A stretch of DNA of 64,000 bases from an uncultured Candidatus Poseidoniales archaeon (GTDB lineage Archaea > Thermoplasmatota > Poseidoniia > Poseidoniales > Poseidoniaceae). The DNA is taken from assembly GCA_964587885.1 (NCBI GenBank), contig CAZPME010000008.1, positions 1-64,000 on the forward strand, in the 5' to 3' direction. Made by a program: the position numbers and the translations under genes. Numbering within the stretch: position 1 is the first letter of the stretch; every line of letters begins with the position of its first letter. A model generated the notes under the pieces. It ran no database searches and was not told where the DNA came from. It saw nothing but the letters and a program-made list of their open reading frames with translations. This document shows, piece after piece, positions 13,839-63,280 of the stretch.

Positions 13839-13847
13839 GGTGAATTC

Positions 13848-16352: not shown

Positions 16353-16358
16353 TGGCGG

Positions 16359-19300: not shown

Positions 19301-19418
19301 GAAAGCGCATGGCATGCTGACCTAATCCTCCCCTTGCCTTGTCATTAGGCAGGGAAGTTAAATGGCAAAGGAGGCCACTCTTGCGCATATTATCGTGGCG
19401 GCCGAGAAGGGGATTCAA
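16359..19418 (-). CDS. Fusion protein: N-terminal GH77 4-alpha-glucanotransferase (amylomaltase, MalQ-like) plus C-terminal GT35 alpha-glucan/maltodextrin phosphorylase (MalP-like).
   Basis: N-terminus 'RKSGLLCHLTSLPNDKARGGLGQHAMRFLDLLQSAGQSAWQMLPIHPP...DSPYASTSAFAGD' is the canonical GH77 signature; C-terminal half has the GT35 PLP-site 'EASGTSGMKA'. Single 1019-aa ORF, no internal stop. Confidence 0.8.
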   Translation of the reverse strand: MNPLLGRHDNMRKSGLLCHLTSLPNDKARGGLGQHAMRFLDLLQSAGQSAWQMLPIHPPDQYDSPYASTSAFAGDITLLDKEIATRVFAHGGLMEFRLQNPWVHDWALYQIAKQLNDWAPWSQWDEPLRNRKRAALESLKAENIHDYWRHIGEQLAFAKQWDELRAAAEERDIELIGDIPFFIAYDSADVWANQNLFQLNEDGEPTHVSGVPPDAFSDQGQFWGTPLYNWNAHQSEGFAWWRARIATSLGRFHRLRIDHFRAIHDYWSIPASSESAADGAWVAGPRDELLDALKDVAGEGRLIAEDLGIIPPEVIELRQRHEMQGMAVLQFAFDGNSDNPHLPTNIAEDVICYSGTHDNNTTVGWFSNLNQEGRDQVANTLDDEIIIDKNDRPIHRRLMRSALFSRAQTTIIPLQDVMGLESSARMNTPGSKIGNWLWQFEWDDIEPSDFSWLANKTIESGRSIINEPKDSKSGTNIIAYFSAEIGLRSDLPTYSGGLGVLAGDHIKAAADKGLNFIAVTLLYRHGYGRQHLDEKGKQTETFPAFDPRTILDDTGVDIAIPLDGKSLISRIWKYTIKSEFGNEIDVLFLDTMHPDNDSIHSSLGERLYGGGDETRIRQEYLLGVGGVRALKALGRWPLQGIHMNEGHCAFAALEMLSQGWSREELSQRSLFTTHTPVPAGHDYFAWEDVEAILGELLPIEVRNYLGGNACSMSHLAAYFAGQVNAVSILNAQVAAGMFPEYQVHPITNGVHHLTWVGPPMQELFDVHLPEWRKDPAKLVDNHLAPDDALMAARNTSRSILHDLVKVCTGVEFESNALTIGFARRFATYKRADLVFRNLKRLERIGAGKIQFVFAGKAHPRDEGGKQLISNVFEAATELQGKIPVAFLEDYSMETGRVMTNGVDIWLNNPVRPMEASGTSGMKASMSGVPNCSILDGWWPEACAHGINGWAIGNDEMDRDDERDGEAILDVLEHEVIPLWEAGAEKWLPIVRGAITAGSKFSAARMLDDYGEFYTRFGKE

Positions 19419-19476
19419 CTTACCCCTCCTCGCAAGTCAGAGAATCACTAATAGCGAAACCGGACTTAGACCTCAT

Positions 19477-46500: not shown

Positions 46501-49500
46501 TGGCCAGATTTGGCATTGGCGAGTACGAGCAGTTTCAACCACAAATCAACTCGGTGATTGGTCGGCATTTTCTCATTTCTTACTTCCAGATATCACTACT
46601 TGGTTAATTGATAGCAATACCTCAGCGGTTGAATATCATCATCATGATGCTCTGCCATCATTGCACATTCCCGAATTTGAAGATACTTGGGTGAAAAATT
46701 CTGGCGCCAATAATGGCACATCTCAGGGCACTGACACGGTACTCAAAGTTGGAACCCTGAGTGACGGAAGTCGCGCAACAGGAATGTTACGCGTTCCATT
46801 GAGCGCCTTACCAAACCCTGCTAACGCCCACGTGCTAAAGGCGACCTTGAATCTCTATCCTGAATGGGGCTCATCAGAATCGCAGCATATTTCAATTCAT
46901 TCTGCAATGCAAGCGTGGAATTCTAGTGCTAATGGCACGACATATGATGGCGTTAATAATTGGAGTAGCGCAGGTGGTTTAGGAGCTACAGACAGTGGTG
47001 AAATGGTTGACGTGAATACTATAGTAGGGGATTCTTGGGCACAATATGATGTTACTGAATTAGTTCAAAGTGCTACATTAACGGGTAATAATCACCTCTC
47101 TATAATGCTGATAGGCGACGATGCTAGCGGCTTGGTAACTTTCACTTCAGTCGATTCTTCTAGCAACCGCCCATGGTTGAATATAACTTGGGCTACTGGT
47201 AATTCAAGTCAAGTTACTACCACCGGAAGTCCGAATAGTCCAAGTGCTGGCTCAATTCTTTGGGACACATCATCTCATGCTTTGATTCCTACGACAACAC
47301 CTACACTAAATTGGACTCATCCGAATGCTGGTTCAGTTGATGATTGGCGACTTTTCATCTGGAATAATGGCAGTGATGAGCGTGAAGGTTGGACTATACA
47401 CGATACCCGTGAATCCACCACCGGATTCAATATTGGCGCGCTATCGTGGACATCAACTAGTGTCCAAGAGGCCGGACGCACTTATCGCTGGTTTGTACAG
47501 CCTATTATTGACGACATTTACGGTCCGCGTTCCGCGTCATTGCATTATCATCTGCCAGCAGTAATGAGTGGGGAATTGAATTCCACTGATGCTTGGCTAA
47601 ATGTTGTTGAGGGCTCAATGGTTAACGATATCGCTTACCCTGAGGTAATGAGTGACACTTGGATCAACGAAGGCGGGCAAAATTTGAATTACGGAAATGC
47701 TGCAAATTTCACCGTAGGAACAAGTCCATCTTCATCCTCTCTTAGGTCAAAAGCCTTATTGGAAATCGATCTAAGTAATCTTCCGATTCCGCAACCATTT
47801 GATGTGCTTGAAGCAGAGTTGAAACTATACCGAGATGGTGGGCAACAATCGCAAATGACGGTAAGTATTAGCGATTTATTCCTCGCCTTTGACGAAAACA
47901 ACGCTACTTGGAATCAAGCTGATAATGGTACAAATTGGTCGATTACTGGAGCCAGTGGGCAATTAGATTCGGGCCTGCCTGTAGATATTGAGACGATAAC
48001 AGGTAGTGGCTGGTTCTCTTGGGATGTCAGTCAACTCGCTCAAGCGGCATTGGCACGCGGAGACCAAACCATGACTCTCTTGATTCAATCTGAAGAGCCA
48101 TTGAATGCCAGCAACAGTTTCCATACCTTTGCTAGTAGCAATAATATGAATGTGGAATTGCGGCCACAACTGAATTTGACCCTGCGCTCGGTCAACCAGT
48201 GGCTTCCCACCGATTCTTCGTCTCTATATCCGACCAATACTCAAACCATGTGGAATATGTCGGCTGACCTGCCTTCGCCAATGCACGACATTGTATTCAG
48301 TTGGAACTCAACCGATACCAATGCTACAGCACAGCATTTCCAGATGTCTTCTAATCCACGTTTCATAAATCCAGAACTATTCGCCATGTCAAACGATTCT
48401 ACGACATTAGACAATGGTACCTTTACGAATACCGGACAACGCTACTCTTACAACCATAGTACTGATTTGATGCCTATTGACGAATGGATATTTTGGCGTG
48501 TTAGGACTGTACAAGACTATCGTATCGGTAATTGGTCAATGGTCAATAAATTCCGCATGCCGGACTTTGAAGGTGAAGATGATGGAACCGGAAACCTGAC
48601 ATTAAATCTCAACCGTGGAACTGTCTTCACCAATACTTCTGTTTTACCTTTGGTCCCTGACACTACCCTTGATTCAAGCTCGTTAAGCACCAATTATGGT
48701 TCTTCCACCGCACTGAAACTTGGTGCAGGAGCAAGTGGTTCAGGAGAAGCGAGAATCCTCATTGAATATGACCTCAATGAATTACCCTTCCCTGCTAATA
48801 TGATCCCAACTTCAACCATTCTTACGTTGTATAGGTATGGAATTACGGGTGGTCAATCACTCACAGTTGCCGCTTATCCATGTTCTTCATTCTCAGAGTC
48901 TGGGGCCAGTTGGAATAATGCTCCGACTTGCTCGAGTAGTGAAATCACTCGGACTACTCTAGGAGTTGTTCCCCCGACAGGATACATGGAATGGGATATT
49001 ACCTCTCTCGCCCAATCAAATATCGCGGCAGGAAATCGAACATTAACCGTAATGTTAGCAGTTATTGGCACCCCTGGGGCAACTCATGAATTCCGCTCAA
49101 GCGAATATTCGTCAGTTGATGAGCGACCAAATTTGATCTTTGATTATGTCGATAATTCTCAAGGGATCACCCCACCTGCACAACCAACATTGCTTAATCC
49201 AATTGATGGTGATGTATTGTATGATGATAGCAATTGGATTCTCCAGTCTGCAACCCGCCCAGTATTGGAGTGGAATGCGGTTGCTAATGCTACCGATTAT
49301 ATTCTAACTATAGCAAATGCGACTGGGCAAACCAAATATCGTTCGTGGTCGACTAGTGGTTTTGGTAATTCTAATTTCACCTTGAGTACAGATTTAGCGG
49401 CTGGTGAATCTTATGAATGGTGGGTTCAAGCTGTAAATGGAAGTATTCCTGGTCCGTCGAGTAGTCGCTGGACATTCGCGATTGGAAATCCGATAAACAA

Positions 49501-52500
49501 CACTTACAATTCTGATAATACTTACACCTACCAAATTCGTAATGGAGAAGAAGTTCCAACTATCGGCCATGCCAGTATGATTGATTCAGTCATTGATGCA
49601 GCCACTCCAAATTCAGCATTAGAAGATACTAATTTAATGATTGGAAATGACTCAAATGGAGATGAAAAGCGTTCGATAATCGTCCTCGACCCAAGCCAAT
49701 TTCCACTTCCATCAGCGGCTAAGATTCATTCTGCAAGTGTTGGGTTATACATAGAAAATGTAAGGATGAATTCAGGCGTCCTTGTTACTAACATGAACAT
49801 AAGTGTTCATCCGATTATTACCTCTGGTTATACTCCCTTGGGCTCAACTTGGAATGAAGTTGCTAGTGGTTCAAGTTGGTCAGCGGCTGGTTTGCAGCCG
49901 GGAGTTGATTACGGCGCGGCAACTGGAAGTACGACTCTAGTTGCAACAGTCGGATTTGAGGGGTGGATTTGGCTCGACCTCTCACATTCGGGATTGGATT
50001 TGAACAATGCCCATGAATTTATTCTCATCGCTACGGGTCAAGCTTATCTTGATATTTCTCACAGCCAAGATAGTGATGTGGCGCACCGTCCGATAATGTT
50101 ACTCAATTATACTCATATTGACCACGTTACAATAACTCCAGGAAATGGTGCTAGCACTGATGCTGATACCGATTTGCAATATTCATACACAATGTATGAT
50201 GGAAATGGCACTCCAATCTCTGGAGTTATTGAGTGGGGTTCTACCTCTGGAACAATCGACAGCACGGGATTATTTGCTCCTGATCAAGCTGGAATGTGGC
50301 AAGTAAGTGCATGTTTCGGTTTGGTTTGTGACATAGTCACATTGTCGGTAACTTCTGGTTCACCAACCACGTGGGCTAATGTTTTCACTACCGATAGTGG
50401 TAGTTATACCATAGATGCTGACCAAGGGGTCGACTTTACTTTCACAATTTATGACCAGCATGGCAACGTTGTTTCTGGTCAAACCGTAACTGCTACTGCA
50501 ACTAACGGCTCGCTAACTGAGACTTCATCAGGTAATACCCATTCTTGGCATTGGGATGCTTGGGCTGTTGGCGCTCAAACCATAGAAGTAAATTGGGGTG
50601 CGCAGACACATTACCAACAGATAACCGTAGTAGCAGGACAACCGGTCTTGGTGACCATAGGTAACTGTGGTGATGATGATTTGAACGTACCCGCTGGTAC
50701 GACTTGTGCCTTTGATTGGGATGTTTTCGACTCCAAGGGCAATGATGTTGCTAAATCTGTATTGGGGCTTGTCACTTGGACGGCTGAAGAGCATAGCGGT
50801 AATGTGAGTCAAGGAAACTTTACTGCTGACAAGATAGGAACTTGGCAAGTAAACTTGACCAGTGCCTTTGGGCTTGATGCCAACACGACAGTTACAGTTA
50901 TCCATGGAGAGATTGATTACCTTGAGATAATTCCAAGTTCATTATTCGTCACAGCAGATGACCTCCTCTATCTCAACACTACTCGAGTAGATATTCGCGG
51001 CAATCGCTTGATGGTTGATTTGCCGGCTGAAAATTGGACCGTCATCAATGGTTGGCTAACTCCAGGTAGTAATGGCAGTCCTGCAATTTGGGAGCCTGAA
51101 ACCGTCGGTTCTAAGATATTGCGAGGTAATTATGGTACTGAGCAGACCGAATTAATTATCGCGGTATCGCATGGAATAATTTCCCAAATGGAAATCGACA
51201 TCACAACTCCAACTAATATGACTGCTGACGACCAAAGTCTGCTCAAATCATACGGTGTAGACAATAAGGGCAACCGTTGGTCAGTAAATGTCGAGTGGAT
51301 GATTTCTCAAGATCCATCCAACACCAATGATTGGCTTCACGGATACATTTCTGGTGAGGAAGAATCTACAGTGATTTTCAAACCGACTTATGTAGGAGAA
51401 TATAGTATTAGGGCGATTTACACTGAGTCCTCATCAGCATTAAATTTCATGATTTCAACCAATTATTCAATCACCCATGGGCAACTAGCTGATATTTCCT
51501 TTACCGCACCAAATGCATGTACTAGTGGGCCAGATGACGATCCACATTGGACCAATGATTGTGTATGGGAGATGACGGCAGATGAAAACATTCCATTTGC
51601 GGTTGAACTAGTTGACCTAAATGGAAATCAAATATCCGATGAGATCTTAACATGGACAGAAAATGGTAATGATGTATCTTCAGATATGGTGGATGATTCA
51701 TTTGTCTGGAGTGGAGTGAGGGATGAAGGTGAATATGTTATTCGCATTGCAAATGGGACTATTTTTGAAGAAATCACGGTAAATATTAGACATGGTAGAG
51801 CTCTAGTGGTTAACCATGTGGCAAGCGCAAATAGTGTTGAGGCCGGGCAATCATTGACGATCAAATTGACTGGAACAGATGTTGCTGGCAATACTTTCGA
51901 CCAAGATGTTACTTGGTCACATCCAACTGAAACAGTCGACAAGATTGGTGTCGGCGAATACATCTACAATTCCACCATGCAAGGAACGTATGACTTGGTA
52001 TACGAATTGCCGGGCGCCCAAACCGATATGTGGACGATTACTGTTGCTCACACCGACTTGTCACGCTTCGTTTTAGAACTTGATAAAATTTCACTTGAGC
52101 AACAGGCTGAAGTCACAATTACAATTAGTGCATTTGACCGCTTCGGAAATCCGGTGGCGGTTCCTACAGGCGATGCACTAATCGTCGAAGCGACTGGGCG
52201 CGGAACTGTATCATCGGTATCGGATGATACTACAAAATACAAGATTGAAACTCTAGATGAAGGTGAGCATACCATCACTGTGACAACTTTGGTAGCAGGT
52301 ATTATGGTAACATCTCAATCCACATACAACGTTACTGGAACCTTACCTGGATTCTTTGCTTCAGGAGGTCCACTATACTACGTGGCAGGTGGGTTGGGAA
52401 CATTTGTCATACTGGTTCTCTTCGTATTGGTAGTCGTTCTATTCCGCCGTAGCACTACTGGTTATGATGATGAAGACGATTGGGATGGGGATGACGAAGA

Positions 52501-52702
52501 TGAAGATTATCTTGAAGAAGATAAAGAACAGCCAGAAATCCCCGAAACCGAGGAAACCTCAACTTCTGAATCTTCAGATGGTGTCGAAGGTGATGATAGT
52601 TACCGTGTTGACGATGATGGCACTGAATGGTGGGAAGATGAAGCGGGCGTTTGGTGGTTCAAGGAAACTGGCGCAGAAGATTGGCAAGAATGGAATGAGT
52701 GA
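43589..52702 (+). CDS. Giant (3037 aa) membrane-anchored surface protein: signal peptide; about 7 DNRLRE-like domains alternating with FN3/Ig-like spacers; about 8 Big_2-like Ig domains; Gly-zipper TM; acidic cytoplasmic tail ending in a Trp-rich motif.
   Basis: Start GTG 43589 / ATG 43598 then 'ALTIVLLFLLADLISPSA'. Repeated 'DTW(V/I)..G...NYG....L.VG...(R/S)xLLxxDLSxLP.P......A.LxLY' units; Big_2-like 'GxxxxVxWxSTxGTIDxxGLFxA'; C-terminal 'YYVAGGLGTFVILVLFVLVVVLFRR' plus 'EAGVWWFKETGAEDWQEWNE'. Confidence 0.85.
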   Translation: MSPMSTASNYRNRRRQALTIVLLFLLADLISPSAIPSYELDQINSPSFVQMSDNASADSQIYSLSQNTNYGNEVSASIGPDEVGPGVSKMVISFPLNFSGAVDVASATMYLVCTTAADDKISTLFVSELTNSFDEMNVTWVNYNGTATWASPGASGASDHGDWEPPLVQTMNSTFSFNITSFVQSALSRGANSVDLLIAAHGAQYSCSTKEELVQANRPQILFVYAANSPAARGTILPTFVEDGDALMTGDFILAAETQPTITWSNLLGQNVEVQLSLASDFMTDSDSWWYFSSQNNLSFQFSGTTGQMELLSENELSNGTTMHYRMRSTNLNQVGDWSSGYFHLPDLQVTDNGNQTASVSIYPDDLGLSEKAISDTYSNNALSGGNGNYGGDSTVLVGMDSPSEDQYAYHGINPHLWGMHDNATMFQADLVLTRSSYNNDAVISFHSFDNSAWTESGLTMNSQDGSTAWTDGGRSNKEMAAIDAMWSNQTNSEFRVDLLTQTQVWLDTSSSTPLSIFSTVRGEYDQYSSSTNVEFYSSEDSSQSNLPYLELMYGWGSGTSPTAVELIDPADGVGVWTLNDHNLSGNTTPTLTWNGSEATSQSHDIIWQLSEGPEFRNITAEVNTVEDNDFTPGSGNYSLTGLDEGKTYAWRMQHVSFEGHHGEWTTNSFFVPSVTSTWLGGNDYQLTLSSGNSSVSGPDMPYCTDTYIDSGSPNDTYPDEGEIQVSYSTFSETAILFGCDMNSHFLPSGYAVSYANMRMKLSFHGGNPIVGAWDNTQSNWVAESANWNTFDGVNNWSQSGAKGSERGSLLSSNTLTSSFSSGDWVNWNITLNAQDAMRSDGSLDFIIGIVGAGSGGTRQALFDSSEQSTSSRPEVILVYSPGSNAKPNNPIPLSPANGSWSIIDGIEPAPDARPVLNWSYGTGVAVGGWSLQLDTTSTFDSGNLLSFASWNDNGFDLTNMSYTPQQDLSDGQIWHWRVRAVSTTNQLGDWSAFSHFLLPDITTWLIDSNTSAVEYHHHDALPSLHIPEFEDTWVKNSGANNGTSQGTDTVLKVGTLSDGSRATGMLRVPLSALPNPANAHVLKATLNLYPEWGSSESQHISIHSAMQAWNSSANGTTYDGVNNWSSAGGLGATDSGEMVDVNTIVGDSWAQYDVTELVQSATLTGNNHLSIMLIGDDASGLVTFTSVDSSSNRPWLNITWATGNSSQVTTTGSPNSPSAGSILWDTSSHALIPTTTPTLNWTHPNAGSVDDWRLFIWNNGSDEREGWTIHDTRESTTGFNIGALSWTSTSVQEAGRTYRWFVQPIIDDIYGPRSASLHYHLPAVMSGELNSTDAWLNVVEGSMVNDIAYPEVMSDTWINEGGQNLNYGNAANFTVGTSPSSSSLRSKALLEIDLSNLPIPQPFDVLEAELKLYRDGGQQSQMTVSISDLFLAFDENNATWNQADNGTNWSITGASGQLDSGLPVDIETITGSGWFSWDVSQLAQAALARGDQTMTLLIQSEEPLNASNSFHTFASSNNMNVELRPQLNLTLRSVNQWLPTDSSSLYPTNTQTMWNMSADLPSPMHDIVFSWNSTDTNATAQHFQMSSNPRFINPELFAMSNDSTTLDNGTFTNTGQRYSYNHSTDLMPIDEWIFWRVRTVQDYRIGNWSMVNKFRMPDFEGEDDGTGNLTLNLNRGTVFTNTSVLPLVPDTTLDSSSLSTNYGSSTALKLGAGASGSGEARILIEYDLNELPFPANMIPTSTILTLYRYGITGGQSLTVAAYPCSSFSESGASWNNAPTCSSSEITRTTLGVVPPTGYMEWDITSLAQSNIAAGNRTLTVMLAVIGTPGATHEFRSSEYSSVDERPNLIFDYVDNSQGITPPAQPTLLNPIDGDVLYDDSNWILQSATRPVLEWNAVANATDYILTIANATGQTKYRSWSTSGFGNSNFTLSTDLAAGESYEWWVQAVNGSIPGPSSSRWTFAIGNPINNTYNSDNTYTYQIRNGEEVPTIGHASMIDSVIDAATPNSALEDTNLMIGNDSNGDEKRSIIVLDPSQFPLPSAAKIHSASVGLYIENVRMNSGVLVTNMNISVHPIITSGYTPLGSTWNEVASGSSWSAAGLQPGVDYGAATGSTTLVATVGFEGWIWLDLSHSGLDLNNAHEFILIATGQAYLDISHSQDSDVAHRPIMLLNYTHIDHVTITPGNGASTDADTDLQYSYTMYDGNGTPISGVIEWGSTSGTIDSTGLFAPDQAGMWQVSACFGLVCDIVTLSVTSGSPTTWANVFTTDSGSYTIDADQGVDFTFTIYDQHGNVVSGQTVTATATNGSLTETSSGNTHSWHWDAWAVGAQTIEVNWGAQTHYQQITVVAGQPVLVTIGNCGDDDLNVPAGTTCAFDWDVFDSKGNDVAKSVLGLVTWTAEEHSGNVSQGNFTADKIGTWQVNLTSAFGLDANTTVTVIHGEIDYLEIIPSSLFVTADDLLYLNTTRVDIRGNRLMVDLPAENWTVINGWLTPGSNGSPAIWEPETVGSKILRGNYGTEQTELIIAVSHGIISQMEIDITTPTNMTADDQSLLKSYGVDNKGNRWSVNVEWMISQDPSNTNDWLHGYISGEEESTVIFKPTYVGEYSIRAIYTESSSALNFMISTNYSITHGQLADISFTAPNACTSGPDDDPHWTNDCVWEMTADENIPFAVELVDLNGNQISDEILTWTENGNDVSSDMVDDSFVWSGVRDEGEYVIRIANGTIFEEITVNIRHGRALVVNHVASANSVEAGQSLTIKLTGTDVAGNTFDQDVTWSHPTETVDKIGVGEYIYNSTMQGTYDLVYELPGAQTDMWTITVAHTDLSRFVLELDKISLEQQAEVTITISAFDRFGNPVAVPTGDALIVEATGRGTVSSVSDDTTKYKIETLDEGEHTITVTTLVAGIMVTSQSTYNVTGTLPGFFASGGPLYYVAGGLGTFVILVLFVLVVVLFRRSTTGYDDEDDWDGDDEDEDYLEEDKEQPEIPETEETSTSESSDGVEGDDSYRVDDDGTEWWEDEAGVWWFKETGAEDWQEWNE

Positions 52703-52778
52703 TTTCCCCTCTTGTAAAGAGGGGAACTTTTCTGCGTCGACTTCATTTGTGATGCCTCCCCTCGTCGCGTTGGTCGAA

Positions 52779-55460
52779 ATGTCGTTTGCGAAAAAGCATC
52801 GAGTATTGCCGACTACAATTGTCGTGTTTTTACTACTCTCAACTCTAATTACTGTGGTCATTCCTTCCACTAGTGCTGGCACCGTAGACCGTATCGAAAT
52901 CGACCAACAGCCCCCCATAATGCTTTCAGCAGATAGTCAAATGCAATTTACTGCAACAATGTATGATTCTTCAAATAATACCCTTTCGGAAATTGTTGAG
53001 TGGAGTGCTACCAATGGGTCAATCGACGGAGCAGGTTTGTTTACCCCATGGGCAACAGGGAATGTGTCTATCAGCGCAAATTCTGGGGTGGCATCGACAT
53101 TTGTCAACATCAGTGTTGAAGCAGGATGGCCCAGTTCCCTTACCATAGAATCGAATCAATCTGAAATCGGTGTAGATTCAACCGCTCAATTGACTGCCTT
53201 ACTTGCCGATGCTCGCGGTAATGAAGTTCAAGGCCACGCCTTGACTTGGTCTCCTTCCCAAGGTACAGTAAATGAGACAGGAGTTTGGTTTCCCGCTAGT
53301 GTTGGTGTAGCAAGCATTGAAGTGCATTGGGGTGAACTCTCGGCGACAATGAACATCACGGTAATTACCGGTCAACCTGCAAATTTGATACTCCCAACTG
53401 GTCTATCGGTACGCTATGGCCAGAGCATTACTATCGTGCCAGAAATTTATGATTCGCATGGTAATCTATTGTCTCTCGAAGATGCTGGTAGTCTGCAGTG
53501 GGCTGCAGATAGTGGTGTGATTTCTCAAACTGGGTCATTTACGGGTAATGCCGTCGGGATTTGGAATATTTCATGTTCAACTGCAAATGGATTATTCGCT
53601 ACAGTTGAAATTTCTGTAATCTCCGCAGCAATTGAGAGTTTGGAATTAGTTGCAGAAAACCGAGTATTCCGGGCTGATGAAGCGGTTGAAATTAGAGTCA
53701 TTCGAAGCGATGTTTACGGAAACGTCGAGGATATTTCTACCCCACTTTCAAATTGGTCATACCAATCGGGAGCACTTAGGTATGGAGAAAATGCTACTGA
53801 ATGGCTACCCACCGTAGTCGGCAATTGGACTCTTAGTGTTGTTAGTGAAGGATTTACTGCGAGCATCACAATTGAAGTCGTACACGGTTATGCAATTGAA
53901 TTATTATTGGTTACAGAAAATCAGAGAGTTAGTGCTGATGACGATGCAGTAATCCATATGCAAGCCCGTGATATTCGCAATAATCGTTGGATAGTTACCG
54001 GCACATGGGAAGCAGAAAATAGCCTTGCAGAATCGTGGCTTGCCTCGTTTGGGACATGGGCAAACTTTGCCGCTACTAAGACGGGAGAATGGCAAATAAC
54101 TGGTAGTTGGTTTGATGAGGAACAACAACAAATATTCTCTGACAATGTCACAATTGAAGTTTATGCTGGTGAATTATCAACCATTATTTTGCAGGGAGAT
54201 GGCGCCACAGTTTCAGCCGACGAGGTGCTAGATTTAGCGCCGACAATGTTTGATTCAGATGGCAATCAAATCGGCACGGTCTTGCTAAACTGGACTGTTG
54301 ATGGAGAAGACAAAACTACTGATTTCAGACTTCATCGCGGTGTCTATTATCCTTATTCGGTTGGGTTGCACGAAATCCGCGCCCAAGCCGCCTCAGCCTA
54401 TGCCAGTGTGATGATTCAGGTAACTCATGGTCAGGCACGCACATTAAGCATCAGTGTAGCCAACAATCTGTCGATCAATTCAGGCGAGGAAGGAGAGATA
54501 ACATTCACAGTTTACGCTCAAGATTTATCCGGAAATTCCTTCTTAGTCGACGAATTGACTTGGGATATTCCTGAATATGCTGGTGAGATTAGGGCTGGAG
54601 GCGATAGTGGTGAATGGATATTAAGCGGAAAGAAAGCCGGTGATTGGCGTTTCACGCTATATTCGGGAGATGCTCAATTTGACCTTTTGGTCAAAGTTAA
54701 TGCTGGTTTAGCGGCACGTATTGAAGTTGTCATTTCTTCGGATTATTATCATCAAGGTGACGAGATGATACTCGATGTGAGGGTTTATGATTCATTCAAC
54801 AATTCTCTCAAAGTAATACCTTCTGATATGACGGTATCCTCTACTGCCGGCCCAGCAAGTCACGTCAGCGAGGGTAGTTGGAAAGTGATGATGGATACAG
54901 GCGGTAGTGACCACGCTGTAACCGTACGTTATGATGAGTTAACCGAACAGAAATTCTTCGATGTACAAGGGGCCCTCTTAGGGGGTGCATTAGGTTCCTC
55001 TGATGCCGTAGTCCTTGGCGGTACGATGTTCATGGCCTTGATTCTCATTTTTCTTGTTTTAGCAATACGACGCGGACGTCGAGATGAAAATGCCACCGAA
55101 GGAGAGAAGCACTCACCTATTCTAGGTGATTCTACCCTTTCATCACAACCACCTGCGTCTACAGTTTCAGCTCAGCCGCAGGAAAACCAGCCTGAGGCGA
55201 CTGAAACTTCACAACCGGGCCAGCCTCAATCTGGTTCAACCTCTCCAGCCTCCACTTCCTTAGATACTGCTTCGGCTGCTTTGGAAACTCCCGCGCCAGC
55301 CGACCCAGCCAAAGAGGCTGCTCAAAGGGCCAAAGCCACAGGCGTTATGGTTGCAGCCGAAGGTACAACTCAGGGTCAATCGGGATGGTATTACGACACT
55401 ACTGGAACGTTGACGAATTGGGAAGTCGATGCTGAAGGAAGGTGGAATAGGATACAATGA
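52779..55460 (+). CDS. Large (about 893 aa) membrane-anchored surface protein: signal peptide, about 9 Big_2-like Ig domains, Gly-zipper TM, P/Q/S/T-rich cytoplasmic tail ending 'GQSGWYYDTTGTLTNWEVDAEGRWNRIQ'.
   Basis: ATG 52779 ('MSFAKKHRVLPTTIVVFLLLSTLITVVIPSTSAG') chosen because the track's 52464 start overlaps the upstream gene; Big_2-like repeats; 'LLGGALGSSDAVVLGGTMFMALILIFLVLAIRRGRR'. Confidence 0.8.
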   Translation: MSFAKKHRVLPTTIVVFLLLSTLITVVIPSTSAGTVDRIEIDQQPPIMLSADSQMQFTATMYDSSNNTLSEIVEWSATNGSIDGAGLFTPWATGNVSISANSGVASTFVNISVEAGWPSSLTIESNQSEIGVDSTAQLTALLADARGNEVQGHALTWSPSQGTVNETGVWFPASVGVASIEVHWGELSATMNITVITGQPANLILPTGLSVRYGQSITIVPEIYDSHGNLLSLEDAGSLQWAADSGVISQTGSFTGNAVGIWNISCSTANGLFATVEISVISAAIESLELVAENRVFRADEAVEIRVIRSDVYGNVEDISTPLSNWSYQSGALRYGENATEWLPTVVGNWTLSVVSEGFTASITIEVVHGYAIELLLVTENQRVSADDDAVIHMQARDIRNNRWIVTGTWEAENSLAESWLASFGTWANFAATKTGEWQITGSWFDEEQQQIFSDNVTIEVYAGELSTIILQGDGATVSADEVLDLAPTMFDSDGNQIGTVLLNWTVDGEDKTTDFRLHRGVYYPYSVGLHEIRAQAASAYASVMIQVTHGQARTLSISVANNLSINSGEEGEITFTVYAQDLSGNSFLVDELTWDIPEYAGEIRAGGDSGEWILSGKKAGDWRFTLYSGDAQFDLLVKVNAGLAARIEVVISSDYYHQGDEMILDVRVYDSFNNSLKVIPSDMTVSSTAGPASHVSEGSWKVMMDTGGSDHAVTVRYDELTEQKFFDVQGALLGGALGSSDAVVLGGTMFMALILIFLVLAIRRGRRDENATEGEKHSPILGDSTLSSQPPASTVSAQPQENQPEATETSQPGQPQSGSTSPASTSLDTASAALETPAPADPAKEAAQRAKATGVMVAAEGTTQGQSGWYYDTTGTLTNWEVDAEGRWNRIQ

Positions 55461-55469
55461 GGTGCGAGA

Positions 55470-58304
55470 ATGCGCAGAATATGTATCATTATCATCGCCA
55501 TATTACTGTTGTCGGTATTTACTACGGACCCAAAATTATTACAATTGGAAAACCCAAGAGATTTTGCTTTGCCAGGTTGCCCTGAAGAGCCCGCTGCTGT
55601 GTCAATAGAAATCACGCATTCTGGTTCTGGTTCGGTTCCAGCCGACCAACATTTGCAATTGACTGCTATTGTCAAAGACTCCAGTTCCCAAACACTTGGC
55701 GTTTTTCCAACTTGGGGAGTATCGAATGGTTCAATCACCTCAGATGGATTATTCACACCATTAGCAACTGGAGAGGTAGAAGTGTGGGCGTGTATCGGTG
55801 AGGTCAATCAGTCGAAAACTCTCACAGTGTTACAAGGTGAGACGGTCTCCGCAGAATTACAATTGTCTGATTATCAGATTACTTCCGATGAAGTTGTGCA
55901 ACTCTTGCCCAAGAAAATCGATAGCAAAGGAAATCGGGCTGATACCTTTGTCCCGACTGAGAATTTTTCCTTACCAGTGGGTAGCAATATCTCAGGTGGT
56001 CAAATATTGAATTGGTTTCCTGGTCCAGTTGGAAATCATACAATTTCTGCAAATGTATTGGGCTATTCGGTAAGTGTTCAGGTCAACGTTTCTTTTGGGC
56101 AAGCGGTGGGGATTGGGATTGAATCATCGTCAAATGAAATAACCTCGGATCAATCGCTTGAATTAGCGCTATCAATTTTGGACGGCAAGGGAAATACTCA
56201 ACCAATTATTGGTGAATGGTACTCAAGAAATAATACCGAATTGCCGCTATCAATAACCAATACGAGTGCATTAGTCGAAGGAAATGTGGCTGGAATATGG
56301 CGTGTAATTGCCAATTATTCTGGTGCCGAGACCAATGGCTCGACCTGGACTACCTATCGCGATATTACCGTAATACATGGTGCCTTAACGGCGACAAGGA
56401 TTGACGGATTCATCATTAGTCGCAGTGGCCAAGGTAATGACCTTGGACAACTTAGCGGCACTCTCCAAATGAATTCAGATGATCAATTAGTTTTATCACC
56501 GCGCCTTGAAGATGCCGACGGGAACATTCTCCCAACTACTGGATTAACTTGGAAATTGGAATCCGACAACATCGCATTTCCCGAAACTTCGTCTAACAAC
56601 TCATTTACCTTCTCACCGGTGCAAACTGGAAATTATATTGTGACTCTAACTCCTGCAGAGGGCATCCCCGAGCGTTTGACTATTGAGGTTAGGCATGGAG
56701 AAGCTGAAGCGATTGAAGTGTATTCAGGGGCTAGTGAAAACCTCGTGGTTTCAGTAGGTCAAAATCTAAGTTTTGAGGTGTTTGGTGTCGATAGAGACGG
56801 CAATAATTTCCCCTTGGATGTCGAATGGTTTATTCCCGAACACACGGGAAATATCAGCAATGGTTCACTTGGAGTGGGAAATTATGTCTTTACTAGTTCG
56901 CGTGACACTCCAATTAGAATACACACATTAAAAGCAATAACAGCACTCGGAAAACACGATGTTCTTGTCGATGTTAGAATTGGCATATTGCATCATTTAC
57001 AGATTGATTATTCGCCATTGGAAGGTGTTCAGGGTGAAGAGTTACAGATTACTATCACCGGAAGAGACCTAAATGATAATCAAATTCCGATTGCCTTGGA
57101 TGATGTAATTTTGACCTCATCGGCGGGAACTGCCGAATATAGGAATGGCAAGCATTATCTTTACCTTGAGGAGAGTGGAGTACAACATCAGATAACCGCT
57201 GAATACGAAGAATTGCCGCCAGCAATGGTATTTATCGATATTCAAGCGACGATTTTTGGTGGAGTCCTAGGTTCGTCGGAAACGGTTATCATCGGGGGGA
57301 TTGCGATATTATCGGTGATATTACTCGCTCTCGCTGTGATGATTTACAAGATATCGGGCCGGCGAAAAAAGAGTGATGATGAATTAATTGAGGAGATGGT
57401 ACAAACTAATGAAACATCACAATCTCCAGAATTATCTTCACCTGAATCTATTGGAGATTCATCGGGACTTAGGCCTGAAACTGAAATTTCCTTGCCTGTA
57501 ATAATGCCATTGAATCTAGTACCACCACCACCCCTAGCAAATATGCCAGCAATCGCATCTGTACCACAATCAGCAATGGTCCCACCAGTTGCCCAGCCCT
57601 CTCAGCAAATATCTCATGGTGGATTGCCTCCTCCCCTACCTGCTCCAATGTTGGCTCATCCACCCGCACCCCAATCAGCAACCTCTCTTTTGCCACCAGT
57701 TGTTCCAACTTCCATGCCTGCAGGAAACATGTTTCAGCCTCACCCACAGGAATCACCTCAAGAGGTAATGGTAACCCAACCCCAAGCAGAAGTAGACCCA
57801 AACTCACATACTCCAGAACTTCAAGTTCCAACCCAATCACTATTGCCAACATCACAAGAATCCGATTTAGGTCAAGCAACGATTGATTTGTCAGATTCAC
57901 TTTCTGCGTTGGGGCCTATAGGCATGGTTGAGGTATTGGATGAACCAATTACTGAAGCAGAACTACCAATTGAAACTGAGCAACAAGCCCAAGAACAATC
58001 CGCGCTAGAAAATGAAAGTGAACCGGAAACTGAGCCTGAATCACCTGCTGTAGCCGATATTGAAGACCCTTTCCCAGCCCCTTTATTGGAAACCGATGGC
58101 GGCTGGGGTGATGATGACCCGTTCGGAGATTGGGGTAGTGGTGTGGCCAATTCACGGGCCCTTGGCTTGATTGATACCTTCAATGGGCCAATGTCGAATG
58201 ATGGAGTACTTCTAGAGCCGGAACAAGGTACCATTCGTGGTCAATCGGGTTGGTACCGAATGACTGATGGAACAAGGGTTGAATGGAAGTACCCAACTCA
58301 ATAA
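55470..58304 (+). CDS. Large (944 aa) membrane-anchored surface protein, a paralogue of the preceding gene: signal peptide, about 7 Big_2-like Ig domains, Gly-zipper TM, long proline-rich cytoplasmic tail ending '[21 protein letters not shown]'.
   Basis: '[17 protein letters not shown]' signal; '[25 protein letters not shown]' Big_2 motif; '[40 protein letters not shown]'; 10-nt gap to the upstream gene. Confidence 0.85.
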
Positions 58305-59122
58305 GATTCGTCTTGACTGGGGAAATCACCCGAACGCACATCAGTACAAAATTGATTCAAAGCCCCTTCGATTTGTTCCTCTAGATTTAGGTAGCGGCGC
58401 AGGAAACGTGGGCTGAAATCAGTTGTAATACCTAACATGTCGTGAAGTACGAGAACTTGACCGTCGCAATCGTTACCGGCGCCAATGCCGATAGTTGGAA
58501 TATTGATCGCTTCAGAAACTTGTTTCGCTAGCCCAGCGGGTATTTTTTCTAGTACAATAGCAAAACAACCAGCAGTTTCCAATGCCTTTGCATCGGCAAT
58601 TAATTTCTCAGCCTCTTCATCTTCCTTAGCCCGTACTGTGTAGGTACCAAATTTGTAAATTGACTGGGGGGTAAGGCCAAGATGCCCCATGACTGGTATG
58701 CCCGCAGATAATATTCTCTTTACAGACTCACCAACTTCAGAACCTCCTTCAAGTTTTACAGCATGTCCTGATGATTCTTTCATTATTCGAATTGCCGAAT
58801 CAAGAGCGATACGTGAATTCCCTTGGTAGGTGCCGAATGGCATATCTACGACGATAAGAGCCCGGTCGACAGCACGTTGAACACATTGAGCATGGTAGAT
58901 CATTTGGTCGAGAGTAATCGGTACAGTAGTGTCGTGACCAGCCATCACGTTTGCAGCCGAATCTCCAACCAAAATCACGTCCACACCTGAGCGGTCGACG
59001 AGTTTGGCTAGAGAGAAATCATAGGCTGTTAGCATGGTGATTTTTTCACCAGCCTGCTTCATCTCCTGCAGGGTTTGCGTAGTAACTTTACGGGCTGCGG
59101 AATGAACAGACACCTCTCTCAC
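58298..59122 (-). CDS. panB: 3-methyl-2-oxobutanoate hydroxymethyltransferase (ketopantoate hydroxymethyltransferase, PanB).
   Basis: '[53 protein letters not shown]' is collinear with the KPHMT family. Confidence 0.85.
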
Positions 59123-59173: not shown

Positions 59174-60844
59174 CTACTCTGCTTCGGAAATAATGCCAAT
59201 GAAGTCGCAGAATTCGTCAACGTCAATGGCTCCATCATTATTTGCATCAGCTTCATGGAAGTACATTCTTATTGCAACATGTTCATCTGATTTTAATCCC
59301 AATCCAGCTATTGCTTTTGTGAATTCTCTCAAATTTATGCTTTTGTTATTATTTTTATCTGCGGCTTCGAATGCTTCATGTAGTCGCATTTTTTCGACTT
59401 TATCAGGTTCCGAAATCATCATTTTGAAAGTATCCCAAGGTGTTATTTCAGGATTAGCGTTCTTTTGACCATATGTTTTGTATATTGCAATGCCTAAAAC
59501 TACTGCTACACCTGCACCAATAAATGATTTTGAACCCATCAAAATAAGCAAAATAATACCAGATATAATTCCCATTATTTGGGTGAATGGGTAAAGCGGA
59601 GATTTCCATACTGGATTATACCATGAATGCGACTTTGCGGACCTACGTAGAACAATTACGCATGCATTGATAACGATGAAAATCATAATTTTGAAACCGG
59701 ATGCTAGTTCTGCTACATCATGAACTGGCAGAAAGATGATTGCTAAAGCCATAGCCAATCCAGTACCAATGATTGCGATATGGGGTGTTTGGAATTTAGG
59801 GTGCACGTTTTCCAGTGCTTCTGGGAGGAGATTGTCTCGAGCCATAGCAAAGGGAAAACGGGATGAGGCCATTATTCCTGCTAGTGCCATTGAAGTCATA
59901 GTCAAAACCGCTAGTAGTGCCGCAATGATTCCCATATTGCTGCCGCCTACAGCAGTTGCGAAAATGTAGATCGGGTCTTCTCTAGCATGCCCATCGCCTT
60001 TCATGAATCCACTCGGATCTACAGTGGCGGCCATTATGAGGGTAATGAAAACGTATAATGCGCAACTAATCAACAATGAGAGCAAAATTCCATACGGTAT
60101 GTTCCTACTTGGGTTCTTTATCTCTCCACCTACTGCCGCAATTTTTGTTACACCTGCATATGATACGAATACGAATGCTGAAGTTGTTGCTATTGCTTTC
60201 CAATCGGAACCAAATGCCTCTTTCGAACTGACTGCCTCCCAATTCATGTCCATAGTTAGTGCAGCATAAATTGAGATTGTGAAAAGAAAGGTAATGGCAA
60301 TCAACACAATTGGAGCTTGTATTTTCTTGATTCTCTTAACTCCCAATATGTTGATGACGACAATTAGTATCAAAAGAACCATTGCAGCAATTTCTATGTT
60401 TATGTTGACTCCAATAATTTCCTCTAGAACCCAAAGGTATGCTTTAAATCCAATTAGTGCGAAAGCAGATTTGAGCATGAAATTTGCCCACAAACCTAGG
60501 CCCGCAATAGTACCAAACATGGGTCCAAATGTCCTTTCTACATAGACATATGAACCACCCGATGACGGCATTGCTGTTGCTAGTTCTGCCTTTGAAATCG
60601 CTCCAGGCAGGACAACTATTGCTGCCAGCAGGTAGGCGATCCAAATGCCACCTACTGGTACAGTGTCACCTCCCATCTCCAGCATTGCCAGTGCAGGTAG
60701 TACGAATAGGCCAGAACCTAACATTGCCGAGAGTGAAATTATTACAACAGAAAATAGTCCTAATTTCCTCTCTAAAGTGTCCGATACTTTATCGATTGGT
60801 TTCAATAAAGTGTCAATAATATTGGAGACAGTTAATCTAGTCAT
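59174..60844 (-). CDS. APC-superfamily amino-acid permease carrying a C-terminal pair of EF-hand calcium-binding motifs.
   Basis: About 12 TM helices of APC type ('GSGLFVLPALAM...'); C-terminal 80 aa with two canonical EF loops 'DKNNNKSINLREF' and 'DANNDGAIDVDEF'. Confidence 0.8.
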   Translation of the reverse strand: MTRLTVSNIIDTLLKPIDKVSDTLERKLGLFSVVIISLSAMLGSGLFVLPALAMLEMGGDTVPVGGIWIAYLLAAIVVLPGAISKAELATAMPSSGGSYVYVERTFGPMFGTIAGLGLWANFMLKSAFALIGFKAYLWVLEEIIGVNINIEIAAMVLLILIVVINILGVKRIKKIQAPIVLIAITFLFTISIYAALTMDMNWEAVSSKEAFGSDWKAIATTSAFVFVSYAGVTKIAAVGGEIKNPSRNIPYGILLSLLISCALYVFITLIMAATVDPSGFMKGDGHAREDPIYIFATAVGGSNMGIIAALLAVLTMTSMALAGIMASSRFPFAMARDNLLPEALENVHPKFQTPHIAIIGTGLAMALAIIFLPVHDVAELASGFKIMIFIVINACVIVLRRSAKSHSWYNPVWKSPLYPFTQIMGIISGIILLILMGSKSFIGAGVAVVLGIAIYKTYGQKNANPEITPWDTFKMMISEPDKVEKMRLHEAFEAADKNNNKSINLREFTKAIAGLGLKSDEHVAIRMYFHEADANNDGAIDVDEFCDFIGIISEAE

Positions 60845-60894: not shown

Positions 60895-62277
60895 CTAATT
60901 ACTGAATATTGCAATAACCTTCATTTCAACGGCGATAGGTGTTGGAAGGGAACTAATTTCCAATGTGGTCCTAGTTGGCTGAATTTCTCCAAAAAATTCT
61001 GCATATACTGAATTGTATTCTGCAAAATCTCTATCCATATTAATCAAGAATGATGTAACATCTACAACACTCTCAATACCCAATCCTGAATCTTCAAGTA
61101 TTCTTTTGATGTTTTCAATACATGCAATAGTTTGTGCTTTCATATCATAATCCAATAAGTCACCCGAAGAATCTCTTACAGGTCCACCTGGGATTTCATT
61201 TGAATGAGGTTGTCTAGGGCCCACTCCTGAGAGATAAAGCAAATCCCCAACTTTCCTTGCGTGAGGATATGCACCCACAGGTTTTGGTGCATTTTCAGAA
61301 TTCACTAGTCCATCATCTGTAACTTTGGAAATCTCATCGCTATTTTCTTCATCGGCATCTGCATTTTCGACATCAAGGACATCCCTATCACCAGAGTAAT
61401 ATTCTACATCATCTTCATCGTATTCCTTGTCTCCAGAACTGTTCGGGTTAGGGCTCAAGCAAACTACTGCTCCGCCAGCTCCGTGTAATGCCTCATAGGC
61501 TAGGACCTCACCTTGCAGATTATTGGTTTGACCATTTACTCCCGAAAGGAACCACATCGGTTTGAAAGAAACCACTTTTTGCACCCGGACTTGACTGTGA
61601 ATCTGACGTGATAATTGAGCTACATCCTCGACCCTTCCTTCGGATAAGAATTCAAGAATCTTCTGATTCCACTCATCATCTTTGAGTGAATGAATCTTGT
61701 CGTCTTGGGGAGAAATAGGTTCGGTAAACATTCGATTAGACAGGCTCATTGCACAGATGATGGCAACCTTGCGGCCAGTCTTTTCTATTGCATCGAGACA
61801 AGATTTCGCTAGAACAATTGTTTCAGCCCGATTGGAATATACATTGCTTGAAACGATGCTAACCGGCAAGCGATTATCTGGATTAAGTAAACTCACTGCT
61901 ACTACCGAACCGACATCGATAGGAAATCCGTAATAATTTACGCCGCGACTATCAAGTCCGCGTTCTCTATTGGAGACATTCCACGCTTCGGCTAATGCGA
62001 CATCGACATTGAAGTCATATGGCATTGACCCCAAGTCATGAAAATCTGCATCGACTAAAGTCCACTTTGGATTGGGGTCGGTAATCAATTGATGACCGAT
62101 AATACTTGGCCAGGTAGTTGAATAAATAATGATTGAATCTGCACCGCTGTCGATAATGCGTTGACGTAATTCTTCAAATCCCTGACGTAAACGCATCCAA
62201 CCTTCATTTTGCTCGGCTGCTAATAGTGGGTGGGGGTGGACTGGCACTATTGCTGACATTACTACTTCGCCACTCAT
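60895..62277 (-). CDS. Fusion protein: N-terminal LigB-type (class III) extradiol-dioxygenase-like domain, an acidic linker, and a C-terminal RidA/YjgF-family domain.
   Basis: N-terminal 'VMSAIVPVHPHP...SIIIYSTTWPS' LigB-like; C-terminal 'PVGAYPHARKVGDLLYLSGVG...TRTTLEISSLPTPIAVEMKVIAIF' RidA signature. ATG 62277 overlaps the upstream stop as ATGA. Confidence 0.65.
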   Translation of the reverse strand: MSGEVVMSAIVPVHPHPLLAAEQNEGWMRLRQGFEELRQRIIDSGADSIIIYSTTWPSIIGHQLITDPNPKWTLVDADFHDLGSMPYDFNVDVALAEAWNVSNRERGLDSRGVNYYGFPIDVGSVVAVSLLNPDNRLPVSIVSSNVYSNRAETIVLAKSCLDAIEKTGRKVAIICAMSLSNRMFTEPISPQDDKIHSLKDDEWNQKILEFLSEGRVEDVAQLSRQIHSQVRVQKVVSFKPMWFLSGVNGQTNNLQGEVLAYEALHGAGGAVVCLSPNPNSSGDKEYDEDDVEYYSGDRDVLDVENADADEENSDEISKVTDDGLVNSENAPKPVGAYPHARKVGDLLYLSGVGPRQPHSNEIPGGPVRDSSGDLLDYDMKAQTIACIENIKRILEDSGLGIESVVDVTSFLINMDRDFAEYNSVYAEFFGEIQPTRTTLEISSLPTPIAVEMKVIAIFSN

Positions 62278-63173
62278 ACAAATCCCTCCTGAGAATAACA
62301 AGGCCATTCAATGAGTACATTGCCGGTACCGATAATTGAACCATAACCGTGGACGATGGCTTCGTATTCAGGATAATCAAGGGCAGCCAGTAACCAAGTC
62401 AATGACCCACCATCGGTTTCACTGACCGCCTGTTCGGTAAACTCTGGCATCAGGTCATGGGCTTCTCTAGTCCGACCGGTACGGAGTAGTTCGATCATTT
62501 TCATATCCCACAGATAGAGATGATGGCTAGTAATGTGCTCTTTGCTCATATCCTCAGGTACTTCAGATTCGGTGGTGAAGTGGCGGTGTGATAGTGAATT
62601 GCTGGCAATGACCAAGGCACGCTTACCGGATTTTTCAATTGCTCTGGCTGTTGCACGACCGAGTTGTGCAGTCATCTCTTGCATCACTTCGACCGAGTAA
62701 TAATGACGTGAACGATTGCTGGAAATGCACACGATTGGCTTGTCCCAAGCTGGGCGAGTTAGGTGGCAAGAAGTGATGGTGCCATAATCAACACGGAAAT
62801 CAGGATTCTCCATCATTTTCACCGCCAAGCCATCGGCTGCGGCTTCATCGTGTATTGCTTTAGACAATTCTACATCGACTTCAATATCATAATTGTAGCG
62901 AAATAGGTTGGGGAATATAGGGTCTACAGATAGTGATTGAAAATTTGGTAAGCCGAGAAAATGAGTTCCAACATAGGTTTGCCAGTGGGGTGACATGATA
63001 ACGATGACATCGTAATCTTGGGCATCTAGATTGACCCGCATACGCTCATATGCCCAGCGTAGATTTTCCCATCCACATTCGGCAATTGGCTCGTTTTGGG
63101 GAGGGTTTTCAGCATAGACCAAATGAGGCGGATGTGGAGCAATTGCTCCTGCGACAATTTTACCTTCGGCCAT
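62274..63173 (-). CDS. LigB-type (class III) extradiol ring-cleavage dioxygenase subunit-like protein.
   Basis: 'GKIVAGAIAPHPPHLVYAENPPQNEP...VIVIMSPHWQTYVGTHFLGLPN' LigB-family pattern. Start ATG 63173 preferred over the track's upstream alternative start (63266). Confidence 0.65.
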   Translation of the reverse strand: MAEGKIVAGAIAPHPPHLVYAENPPQNEPIAECGWENLRWAYERMRVNLDAQDYDVIVIMSPHWQTYVGTHFLGLPNFQSLSVDPIFPNLFRYNYDIEVDVELSKAIHDEAAADGLAVKMMENPDFRVDYGTITSCHLTRPAWDKPIVCISSNRSRHYYSVEVMQEMTAQLGRATARAIEKSGKRALVIASNSLSHRHFTTESEVPEDMSKEHITSHHLYLWDMKMIELLRTGRTREAHDLMPEFTEQAVSETDGGSLTWLLAALDYPEYEAIVHGYGSIIGTGNVLIEWPCYSQEGFV

Positions 63174-63280
63174 GTGATTCAGTCTCTCGAAAGGGCGACC
63201 ACCCTTGAGCCTGCCCCCTCCCATACAAGCCAAAGTCATCTCAGCGAAGTGCCTAAACCAAACCACTTTGAGCGTGTCTC

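Follow-up and report, generated by a model that had tools for sequence, protein, structure and literature searches.

An uncultured Candidatus Poseidoniales archaeon (GenBank assembly GCA_964587885.1) encodes an amino-acid permease of the APC superfamily that ends in a pair of EF-hands, the helix-loop-helix motifs typical of Ca2+-binding proteins. Its gene occupies positions 59174..60844 on the minus strand of the stretch analysed here (positions 1 to 64,000 of contig CAZPME010000008.1, hereafter the window), as an open reading frame (ORF) of 556 aa with its stop codon at 59174-59176 and with matches to the Pfam families AA_permease_2 and EF-hand_7. The domain fusion is genuine, conserved and under selection, and is a variant of both regulated APC transporters and EF-hand-regulated carriers. 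Judging from sequence and predicted structure, we put at about even odds (a probability of roughly 0.5) that the tail would work as a cytoplasmic Ca2+ sensor that modulates uptake by the transporter to which it is attached.

Poseidoniales, or Marine Group II (MGII) archaea, are among the most abundant planktonic archaea and have not been brought into culture; proteins, peptides and amino acids are thought to be what they feed on. To our knowledge, molecular evidence that archaea use Ca2+ signalling is very scarce. The lineage-wide presence of the fusion suggests that Ca2+ may control nutrient uptake in these abundant ocean archaea, and a conserved Ca2+-sensor permease would offer a testable entry to archaeal Ca2+ signalling. 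The protein could be expressed and reconstituted, which would make the regulation of nutrient uptake approachable without cultivation. Searches of the full-text literature turned up neither an APC-type transporter with an EF-hand nor an account of the Poseidoniales fusion protein; the sole related remark is that Poseidoniales-specific gene modules include families with calcium-binding domains (PMC9258230).

Domain architecture of the permease

The first-pass annotation, made from the letters of the interval 59174-59420 (residues ~476-556 plus the stop codon), had read this gene as an APC permease with 12 transmembrane (TM) helices and a C-terminal EF-hand pair, and profile searches with Pfam bear it out with scores above the curated cut-offs. 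The transporter part is matched by AA_permease_2 (PF13520; residues 28-444, E=5.7e-41, 141 bits against a cut-off of 27), by AA_permease (PF00324; E=8e-36, 124 bits against 24.6) and, at its end, by AA_permease_C (residues 413-462, 30 bits against 27). The two EF-hand profiles that had been proposed as a check both pass: EF-hand_7 (PF13499) spans residues 486-549 (E=6e-12, 46.2 bits against 30), and EF-hand_1 (PF00036) matches in two stretches (43.9 bits against 25.4), the better of them at 525-549. A third profile, PF13405, reaches 38.7 bits against a cut-off of 25. The protein thus belongs to two superfamilies at once, APC and EF-hand.

From its N-terminus, the protein consists of a cytoplasmic segment (residues 1-22; 60779..60844, minus strand), delimited by column frequencies, AlphaFold2 (AF2) models and the alignment with the bacterial transporter GkApcT, followed by a transporter core of the LeuT/APC fold (residues 23-462; 59459..60778, minus strand), which was assigned from Pfam, phmmer searches against the PDB, AF2, Foldseek and hydropathy. 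Twelve TM segments are seen both in the hydropathy profile and in the AF2 model, in agreement with the number first proposed. A short linker (residues 463-468) and an amphipathic helix (469-478) come next (59408..59458, minus strand), recognised by their conservation in 121 close homologues and by two AF2 models, one of the full-length protein and one of the tail alone, both of which show the helix. The tail then closes with EF-hand 1 (EF1; residues 480-514, 59303..59407, minus strand) and EF-hand 2 (EF2; residues 522-555, 59180..59281, minus strand).

The EF-hand loops and their conservation

Both hands carry a loop that matches the PROSITE pattern PS00018: DKNNNKSINLREF at residues 496-508 (window 59321-59359) and DANNDGAIDVDEF at residues 533-545 (window 59210-59248). 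EF1 is called from this match together with EF-hand_1/6 stretches, and EF2 from its own match, Pfam EF-hand_1 and conservation. We judged the loops by a length of 12 residues, oxygen ligands at positions 1, 3, 5, 9 and 12, a hydrophobic residue at position 8 and a Gly at position 6. The EF2 loop, DANNDGAIDVDE (residues 533-544, 59213-59248; D-A-N-N-D-G-A-I-D-V-D-E), is canonical at every position, with D1, N3, D5, G6, I8, D9 and E12. The EF1 loop, DKNNNKSINLRE (residues 496-507, 59324-59359; D-K-N-N-N-K-S-I-N-L-R-E), holds all of the oxygen ligands, with D1, N3, N5, K6, I8, N9 and E12, and departs from these rules solely at position 6, where a Lys replaces the Gly, a substitution that PS00018 permits and that is atypical.

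A reading of these motifs as chance matches, as an assembly or fusion artefact, or as a decaying remnant without function draws on nothing besides the short length of the motifs, and its probability is negligible. Translated in six frames, the whole 64-kb window has no PS00018 match besides the two tail loops, which excludes chance, and the Pfam scores stand above their gathering cut-offs. Among ORFs from related loci, 311,000 residues in all, 75 have a PS00018 match, and only two of these fall outside this gene family. An artefact of fusion or frameshift is ruled out by the occurrence of the fusion as a single ORF in more than 70 independent genomes and in many metagenomes, and by an identical protein on an independent contig of Joint Genome Institute (JGI) metagenome 3300035204, where it has the same neighbours.

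Selection on the tail speaks in the same sense against a decaying remnant. Over 115 pairs, the median ratio of nonsynonymous to synonymous substitution rates (dN/dS; Nei-Gojobori) was 0.095 for the tail, 0.091 for the EF pair and 0.056 for the core, values that are approximate at a dS of around 0.9. The tail is under purifying selection.

This conservation is distributed unequally over the two hands, as seen in the 121 close homologues, used for residue counts, and in 71 full-length species-level sequences, used for counts of canonical loops. EF2 is canonical in 69 of the 71, and its ligands hardly vary: D533 is present in 121/121 homologues, positions 3 and 5 are Asp or Asn in every one of the 121, G538 is kept in 120/121 and E544 in 119/121. 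Position 8 is always Ile, Val, Leu or Met (121/121; I540 itself in 107/121), and positions 2 and 4 vary freely. EF1 is canonical in six of the 71 sequences, the window gene included. Its first position is Asp in 86/121 and Ala in 31/121, the third is mostly Glu or Ser, the fifth is Thr, Pro or Asn, and the twelfth is Gln in 17/121; recurrent classes are D-T-E-G-T-G-x-L-N-L-x-E, D-I-D-G-N-G-E-L-N-V-E-Q and the clearly dead A-A-A-K-x-S-H-P-D. The claim of two canonical loops, in other words, stands for the window protein, whose loop residues obey the EF-hand rules, and fails as a trait of the family. The conserved device would rather be one predicted Ca2+ site with a partner hand that is mostly degenerate and probably mostly structural.

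A further variation concerns the spacing of the hands. An insert of ~19 residues separates EF1 from EF2 in 22/71 species-level sequences, a subclade that includes loci L025, L026, L028, L041 and L044, and it holds a conserved G-G-G-P-N-I-P-D-D-[AS]-I-V motif.

The predicted structure of the tail conforms to the EF fold at moderate confidence. In the AF2 models, DSSP assigns helices to residues 480-495, 505-514, 522-532 and 542-555 and beta bridges to 502-503 and 540-541, that is, two helix-loop-helix units joined by a short antiparallel bridge. A profile built from 32 diverse tails matches calmodulin, centrin, radial spoke protein and calcineurin B (E=1e-14 to 4e-24), and Foldseek superposes the tail model on lobes of centrin, calmodulin and troponin C and, with a TM-score of 0.5-0.6 and an E of ~1e-3, on the human ATP-Mg/Pi carrier's regulatory domain in its Ca2+-bound form (4ZCU; TM-score ~0.54, E~4e-3). 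With calmodulin, centrin and troponin C the tail shares the two-EF-hand lobe, two helix-loop-helix units with a beta bridge. It differs from these three in being one lobe tethered to a membrane protein, with one site usually degenerate and with an additional conserved N-terminal helix that carries an invariant Trp. Members of the calmodulin/centrin family are stand-alone soluble proteins with four EF-hands in two lobes; the window protein has one lobe only, attached to 12 TM helices, and is not one of them.

The junction with the membrane domain is short. Six residues lie between the end of TM12 (~462) and the T468-P469-W470 motif that opens the first tail helix, and a tether this short means that the EF domain must sit near the cytoplasmic face of the transporter. 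Among the 121 homologues P469 and W470 are invariant, T468 is found in 120/121 and T472 is nearly invariant.

Location of the tail relative to the membrane

The topology evidence places the EF tail in the cytoplasm, as the first-pass annotation had supposed, on three independent lines. First, predicted inner loops and the N-terminus carry ~20 Lys or Arg residues against ~6 on the outer loops, in keeping with the positive-inside rule. Second, homology to GkApcT over all 12 TM helices extends to residue 463. Third, the closest relatives without EF-hands bear, directly after the same TM12, Usp domains (25/66 of those scanned) or PTS_EIIA_2 domains (29/66), both of which are cytoplasmic domain families.

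The opposite arrangement, an extracellular tail with seawater Ca2+ as a stabilising cofactor, would suit a marine habitat, where Ca2+ stands at ~10 mM. We regard it as very improbable and ruled out on the topology evidence, since an even number of TM helices (12) with the N-terminus inside returns the C-terminus to the cytoplasm, and both the GkApcT homology and the cytoplasmic domains found at the same position in sister proteins point the same way.

Distribution and origin of the fusion

The EF-hand tail recurs across an archaeal lineage. The 120 best matches in a collection of 5.8 billion proteins are 64-97% identical to the window protein and 548-590 aa long, except for one of 500 aa; almost all of them have EF-hand Pfam matches, and they come from Poseidoniales, Thalassarchaeaceae or Thermoplasmatota under the name ‘amino acid permease’. 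Among the GTDB species representatives 98 relatives were found, of which 80 were fetched, nearly all labelled Poseidoniales or Thalassarchaeaceae; those named to the family level are all Thalassarchaeaceae (MGIIb). The absence of the tail from all homologues, which had been named as a refuting condition, is therefore not what the survey found. The arrangement had also been called unusual; in its own lineage it is commonplace, a conserved and syntenic Poseidoniales gene. The proteins themselves are already public as ‘amino acid permease’, with their EF-hand Pfam matches on record.

In the permease subfamily, only archaeal clusters were seen to have the tail. When 1.84 billion cluster representatives at 50% identity were searched exhaustively with HMMER, the tail aligned in only five of the best 150 matches, and a local hidden Markov model (HMM) of the tail agrees; three of these five have a source name, which is Poseidoniales or Thermoplasmatota, and two have none. 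The tail HMM found no EF tail in the 145 non-archaeal cluster representatives among the best 150. The next-closest proteins are APC permeases of 700-950 aa, bacterial where named (Bacteroidota and others, with Lewinellaceae, Saprospiraceae and Chitinophagales among the names), whose cores are 40-50% identical to that of the window protein and share motifs such as SYAGVTK. Like the window protein, they have a cytoplasmic extension of regulatory type right after TM12. Their tails, however, are Usp and/or PTS_EIIA_2 regions of 250-480 aa, against the ~90-aa EF-hand pair here, and four of these relatives match the model of the prokaryotic C-terminal domain of cation-chloride cotransporters (CCC).

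On this comparison the EF tail appears to be a lineage-specific replacement of, or alternative to, the Usp/EIIA-type tails of the permease subfamily; that is, the lineage would seem to have swapped a cytoplasmic regulatory tail of the Usp/PTS-EIIA2 type for a Ca2+-sensing one. Such a natural exchange of regulatory tails on one scaffold would inform how LeuT-fold transporters are controlled from the cytoplasm. Other post-TM elements of this kind are known in the APC superfamily, where the C-plug of GadC and the C-terminal domains of the CCCs control access or activity; these elements are a peptide plug or Usp-like domains and respond to pH or phosphorylation. They resemble the present tail in being cytoplasmic C-terminal elements after the last TM helix, and differ from it in working without EF-hand regulation.

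Some occurrences in the survey fall outside the general pattern. Two metagenome-assembled genomes labelled Alphaproteobacteria and Micrococcales (L046, CAYMQD010000208.1, and L070, NZLD01000051.1) have the gene at 60-66% identity, split into two ORFs in L046, and both contigs are probably mis-binned archaeal sequence rather than cases of transfer. Euryarchaeota archaeon UBA462 has the EF-hand permease twice, on different contigs (L065 and L075; 62% and 60% identity to the window protein), which can reflect paralogues within one genome or a mixed bin. Finally, the best match among GTDB species representatives is 70% identical (76% for the neighbouring gene panB), and the identical and 97% identical copies are found only in JGI contigs (3300035204 and 3300009104), so that the lineage of the window seems to be without a close representative genome.

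How the tail could act on the transporter

The mechanism that we favour, Ca2+-dependent modulation of uptake by the tail, can be laid out in a few steps. EF2 would bind cytoplasmic Ca2+, and in the window protein EF1 probably would as well. Occupancy is expected to shift the conformation of the EF pair and of the adjoining amphipathic helix with its invariant Trp, and this shift may in turn change how the EF domain packs on the transporter, at its cytoplasmic face or gate, or on a neighbouring protomer, so that transport would be raised or lowered. It is because the tether is so short that altered packing would tune transport. A stronger version of this proposal, in which Ca2+ is a second messenger in MGII archaea and directly gates the uptake of amino acids or related organocations through a single conserved EF site, we put forward tentatively, with the odds rather against it. 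If it holds, the protein would be the first EF-hand-gated member of the APC/LeuT-fold superfamily, and Ca2+-dependent gating would be direct molecular evidence that Ca2+ signalling controls nutrient uptake in dominant marine archaea.

Several observations weigh against a sensing role. The degeneracy of EF1 in most homologues means that cooperative switching of the calmodulin kind is not conserved, and a lone EF site could be constitutively occupied, with a structural and not a sensing part to play. No Ca2+ transporter, Ca2+-handling gene or other EF-hand gene was found near the permease among the window ORFs scanned. The tail is modelled with limited confidence, with a predicted local distance difference test score (pLDDT) of 64-84 in the full-length model and of 67 on its own. 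Furthermore, we know of no demonstration of cytoplasmic Ca2+ signalling in the uncultured Poseidoniales.

The main alternative, which we consider unlikely but worth weighing, casts the EF pair as a module for structure or oligomerisation that dimerises or stabilises the cytoplasmic face, with any metal permanently bound and no Ca2+ signal involved. One conserved site beside a hand that is degenerate in most homologues would fit such a module, as would the position of the EF domain directly after TM12 in the AF2 model and the typically dimeric nature of the Usp domains found at that position in bacterial relatives. Dimers of EF-hand pairs are common, S100 and penta-EF proteins being examples, and TM12 lies at the dimer interface of some APC transporters such as AdiC. 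Against this stand the strictly kept coordinating positions of EF2, Gly6 and Glu12 among them, which are expected where metal occupancy matters; moreover, a single typical EF site would not be permanently filled at sub-micromolar free Ca2+, the cytoplasmic level established for bacteria and carried over here to MGII. Were the tail only structural, the protein would be an ordinary domain fusion.

It is also conceivable, though quite improbable, that the EF pair docks a separate cytoplasmic enzyme or regulator, in a Ca2+-dependent manner or not, instead of gating the transporter. The tail does resemble calmodulin- and centrin-like lobes, which act by clamping helical target peptides, and the gene keeps a conserved synteny with panB and two LigB-type genes. 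No candidate partner has been identified, however, synteny within one order is possibly just inherited, and an intramolecular contact fits the invariant TPW helix and so short a tether at least as well. As for a target within the protein itself, the N-terminal segment finds no support: residues 1-22 have a pLDDT below 50 in the AF2 model, and for residues 11-28 the alignment simply continues into the N-terminal region of GkApcT. The segment is moderately kept in the EF-hand clade (P6, L9, V13, L14, P16 and I17).

Comparison with EF-hand-regulated mitochondrial carriers

The favoured reading of the tail as a Ca2+ sensor has a functional parallel in eukaryotes, as already proposed at first reading. 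In the mitochondrial carriers SCaMC/SLC25A24 (ATP-Mg/Pi) and aralar/citrin (aspartate/glutamate), EF-hands are likewise fused to a solute transporter, whose activity is governed by the Ca2+ present on one membrane side. The parallel holds at the level of function and breaks down in structure, since those proteins are eukaryotic, have the mitochondrial carrier fold instead of the APC/LeuT fold, and bear four to eight EF-hands at the N-terminus. The window protein has no Pfam match to Mito_carr, its core has the APC fold and its EF pair is C-terminal, so it is not a member of the SCaMC, aralar or citrin families. We read the likeness as a convergent analogy and not as homology of the fusion. If uptake is indeed Ca2+-controlled, the permease would stand beside the Ca2+-regulated mitochondrial carriers as a prokaryotic equivalent reached by convergence, made by exchange of a bacterial-type Usp/EIIA tail for a Ca2+ sensor.

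The transporter core and its substrate

The full-length AF2 model, built from 120 homologues, has a pLDDT of 81.8 and a predicted TM-score of 0.77. The closest solved structure is GkApcT of Geobacillus kaustophilus (6F34/5OQT; phmmer against the PDB, E=5e-34 over residues 11-463), which is homologous to the cationic amino acid transporters (CAT) of the SLC7 family and onto which the model superposes with a TM-score of 0.86 normalised to the target (6f34_A, Foldseek); AdiC, LAT1, ApcT and others were matched as well. Both proteins have 12 TM helices in the LeuT/APC fold, and the window protein retains the TM1 motif GxG, its T43 corresponding to S44. GkApcT differs in ending after TM12, without an EF-hand tail.

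They also differ in residues that are functional in GkApcT. Glu115 of TM3, which couples protons, aligns with Asn121 of the window protein; Lys191 with Ala183, a position held by Ser in most of the clade; Asp237 of TM6B with Thr233, inside a clade-invariant V-T-K; and Met321, a selectivity residue, with an invariant Gly323. The functional roles of these four GkApcT residues have been described, and Asp237 is highly conserved in SLC7 and strictly conserved in the mammalian CATs (PMC5803215). By alignment, then, the window protein has neither the TM6B Asp of SLC7/CAT proteins, replaced by Thr233, nor the proton-coupling Glu of TM3, replaced by Asn121. The NCBIfam models give 210 bits for the 2A0306 amino acid transporter family (TIGR00909; cut-off 556.8) and 187 bits for BcaP (cut-off 690), scores far below the cut-offs that make the protein a relative and not a member of these families, so that no substrate name can be carried over.

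With such scores and with key residues that differ, transfer of substrate or coupling from GkApcT, the CATs or BcaP is ruled out, and H+ coupling of the GkApcT type cannot be assumed. The protein is not demonstrably a CAT/SLC7 or BcaP orthologue. Its predicted role is that of an APC-superfamily secondary transporter for an amino acid or a related organocation, and we infer that a Gly in place of Met321 would leave a roomy pocket.

Genomic context

The permease lies in a compact row of minus-strand genes. Upstream of it are two genes for LigB-type extradiol dioxygenase subunits (60895..63266, minus strand; Pfam LigB and Ribonuc_L-PSP), and 51 bp downstream is panB, for ketopantoate hydroxymethyltransferase (58298..59122, minus strand; Pfam Pantoate_transf, E=7e-116), which gives the order LigB-type gene, LigB-RidA fusion, permease and panB. 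Gaps of ~50 bp flank the permease toward the LigB-RidA gene and panB, and the two LigB genes overlap by 34 bp. This order recurs widely: of 80 related loci, 72 have panB as the next gene downstream and 61-65 have LigB genes upstream. It could hint at an aromatic or amino-aromatic substrate of the permease, and it may be a matter of inheritance rather than a functional operon. The proximal LigB gene (60895-62307) encodes a 470-aa protein with a fused RidA/L-PSP (deaminase-type) domain; many of the related loci show a LigB match of only ~310 aa, and the RidA part is separate or absent there.

Other genes in the window

The window is archaeal in content, with genes for the PolD small subunit, RFC and a Pelota-like protein. 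An ABC sugar-uptake operon (9021-13838) is followed by an alpha-amylase-family gene (13848-16352), by a 1019-aa ORF that joins a GH77 4-alpha-glucanotransferase with a region resembling glycogen/starch phosphorylase (16359-19418, minus strand), and by a GH57 protein of 1550 aa that carries fn3 and a C-terminal glucodextranase module (19339-23991); together, the ABC, amylase, GH77 and GH57 genes of 9021-23991 look like an island for the utilisation of alpha-glucans. The ABC permease genes of this operon (10301-13053, plus strand) are unusually long (495 and 449 aa), with BPD_transp_1 confined to the C-terminal ~190 residues and no Pfam match in the N-terminal ~260-280. Further on, a 511-aa ORF (26811-28346, minus strand) has an N-terminal PfkB-family sugar kinase and a C-terminal KDPG/KHG aldolase, and appears to join kinase and aldolase, two successive steps of the Entner-Doudoroff type, in one fusion protein.

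Giant ORFs of 2689, 3037, 998 and 944 aa are found within 62-8131, 43589-52702 and 52464-58304, all on the plus strand, and are probably surface proteins. The 998- and 944-aa ORFs have almost no Pfam matches, and the latter consists of a TM segment followed by a long low-complexity region rich in Pro, Gln and Ser. The 3037-aa ORF contains four CBM96 modules, and the 2689-aa ORF has a plastocyanin-like domain and, near residue 2514, an archaeal type IV pilin N-terminal motif.

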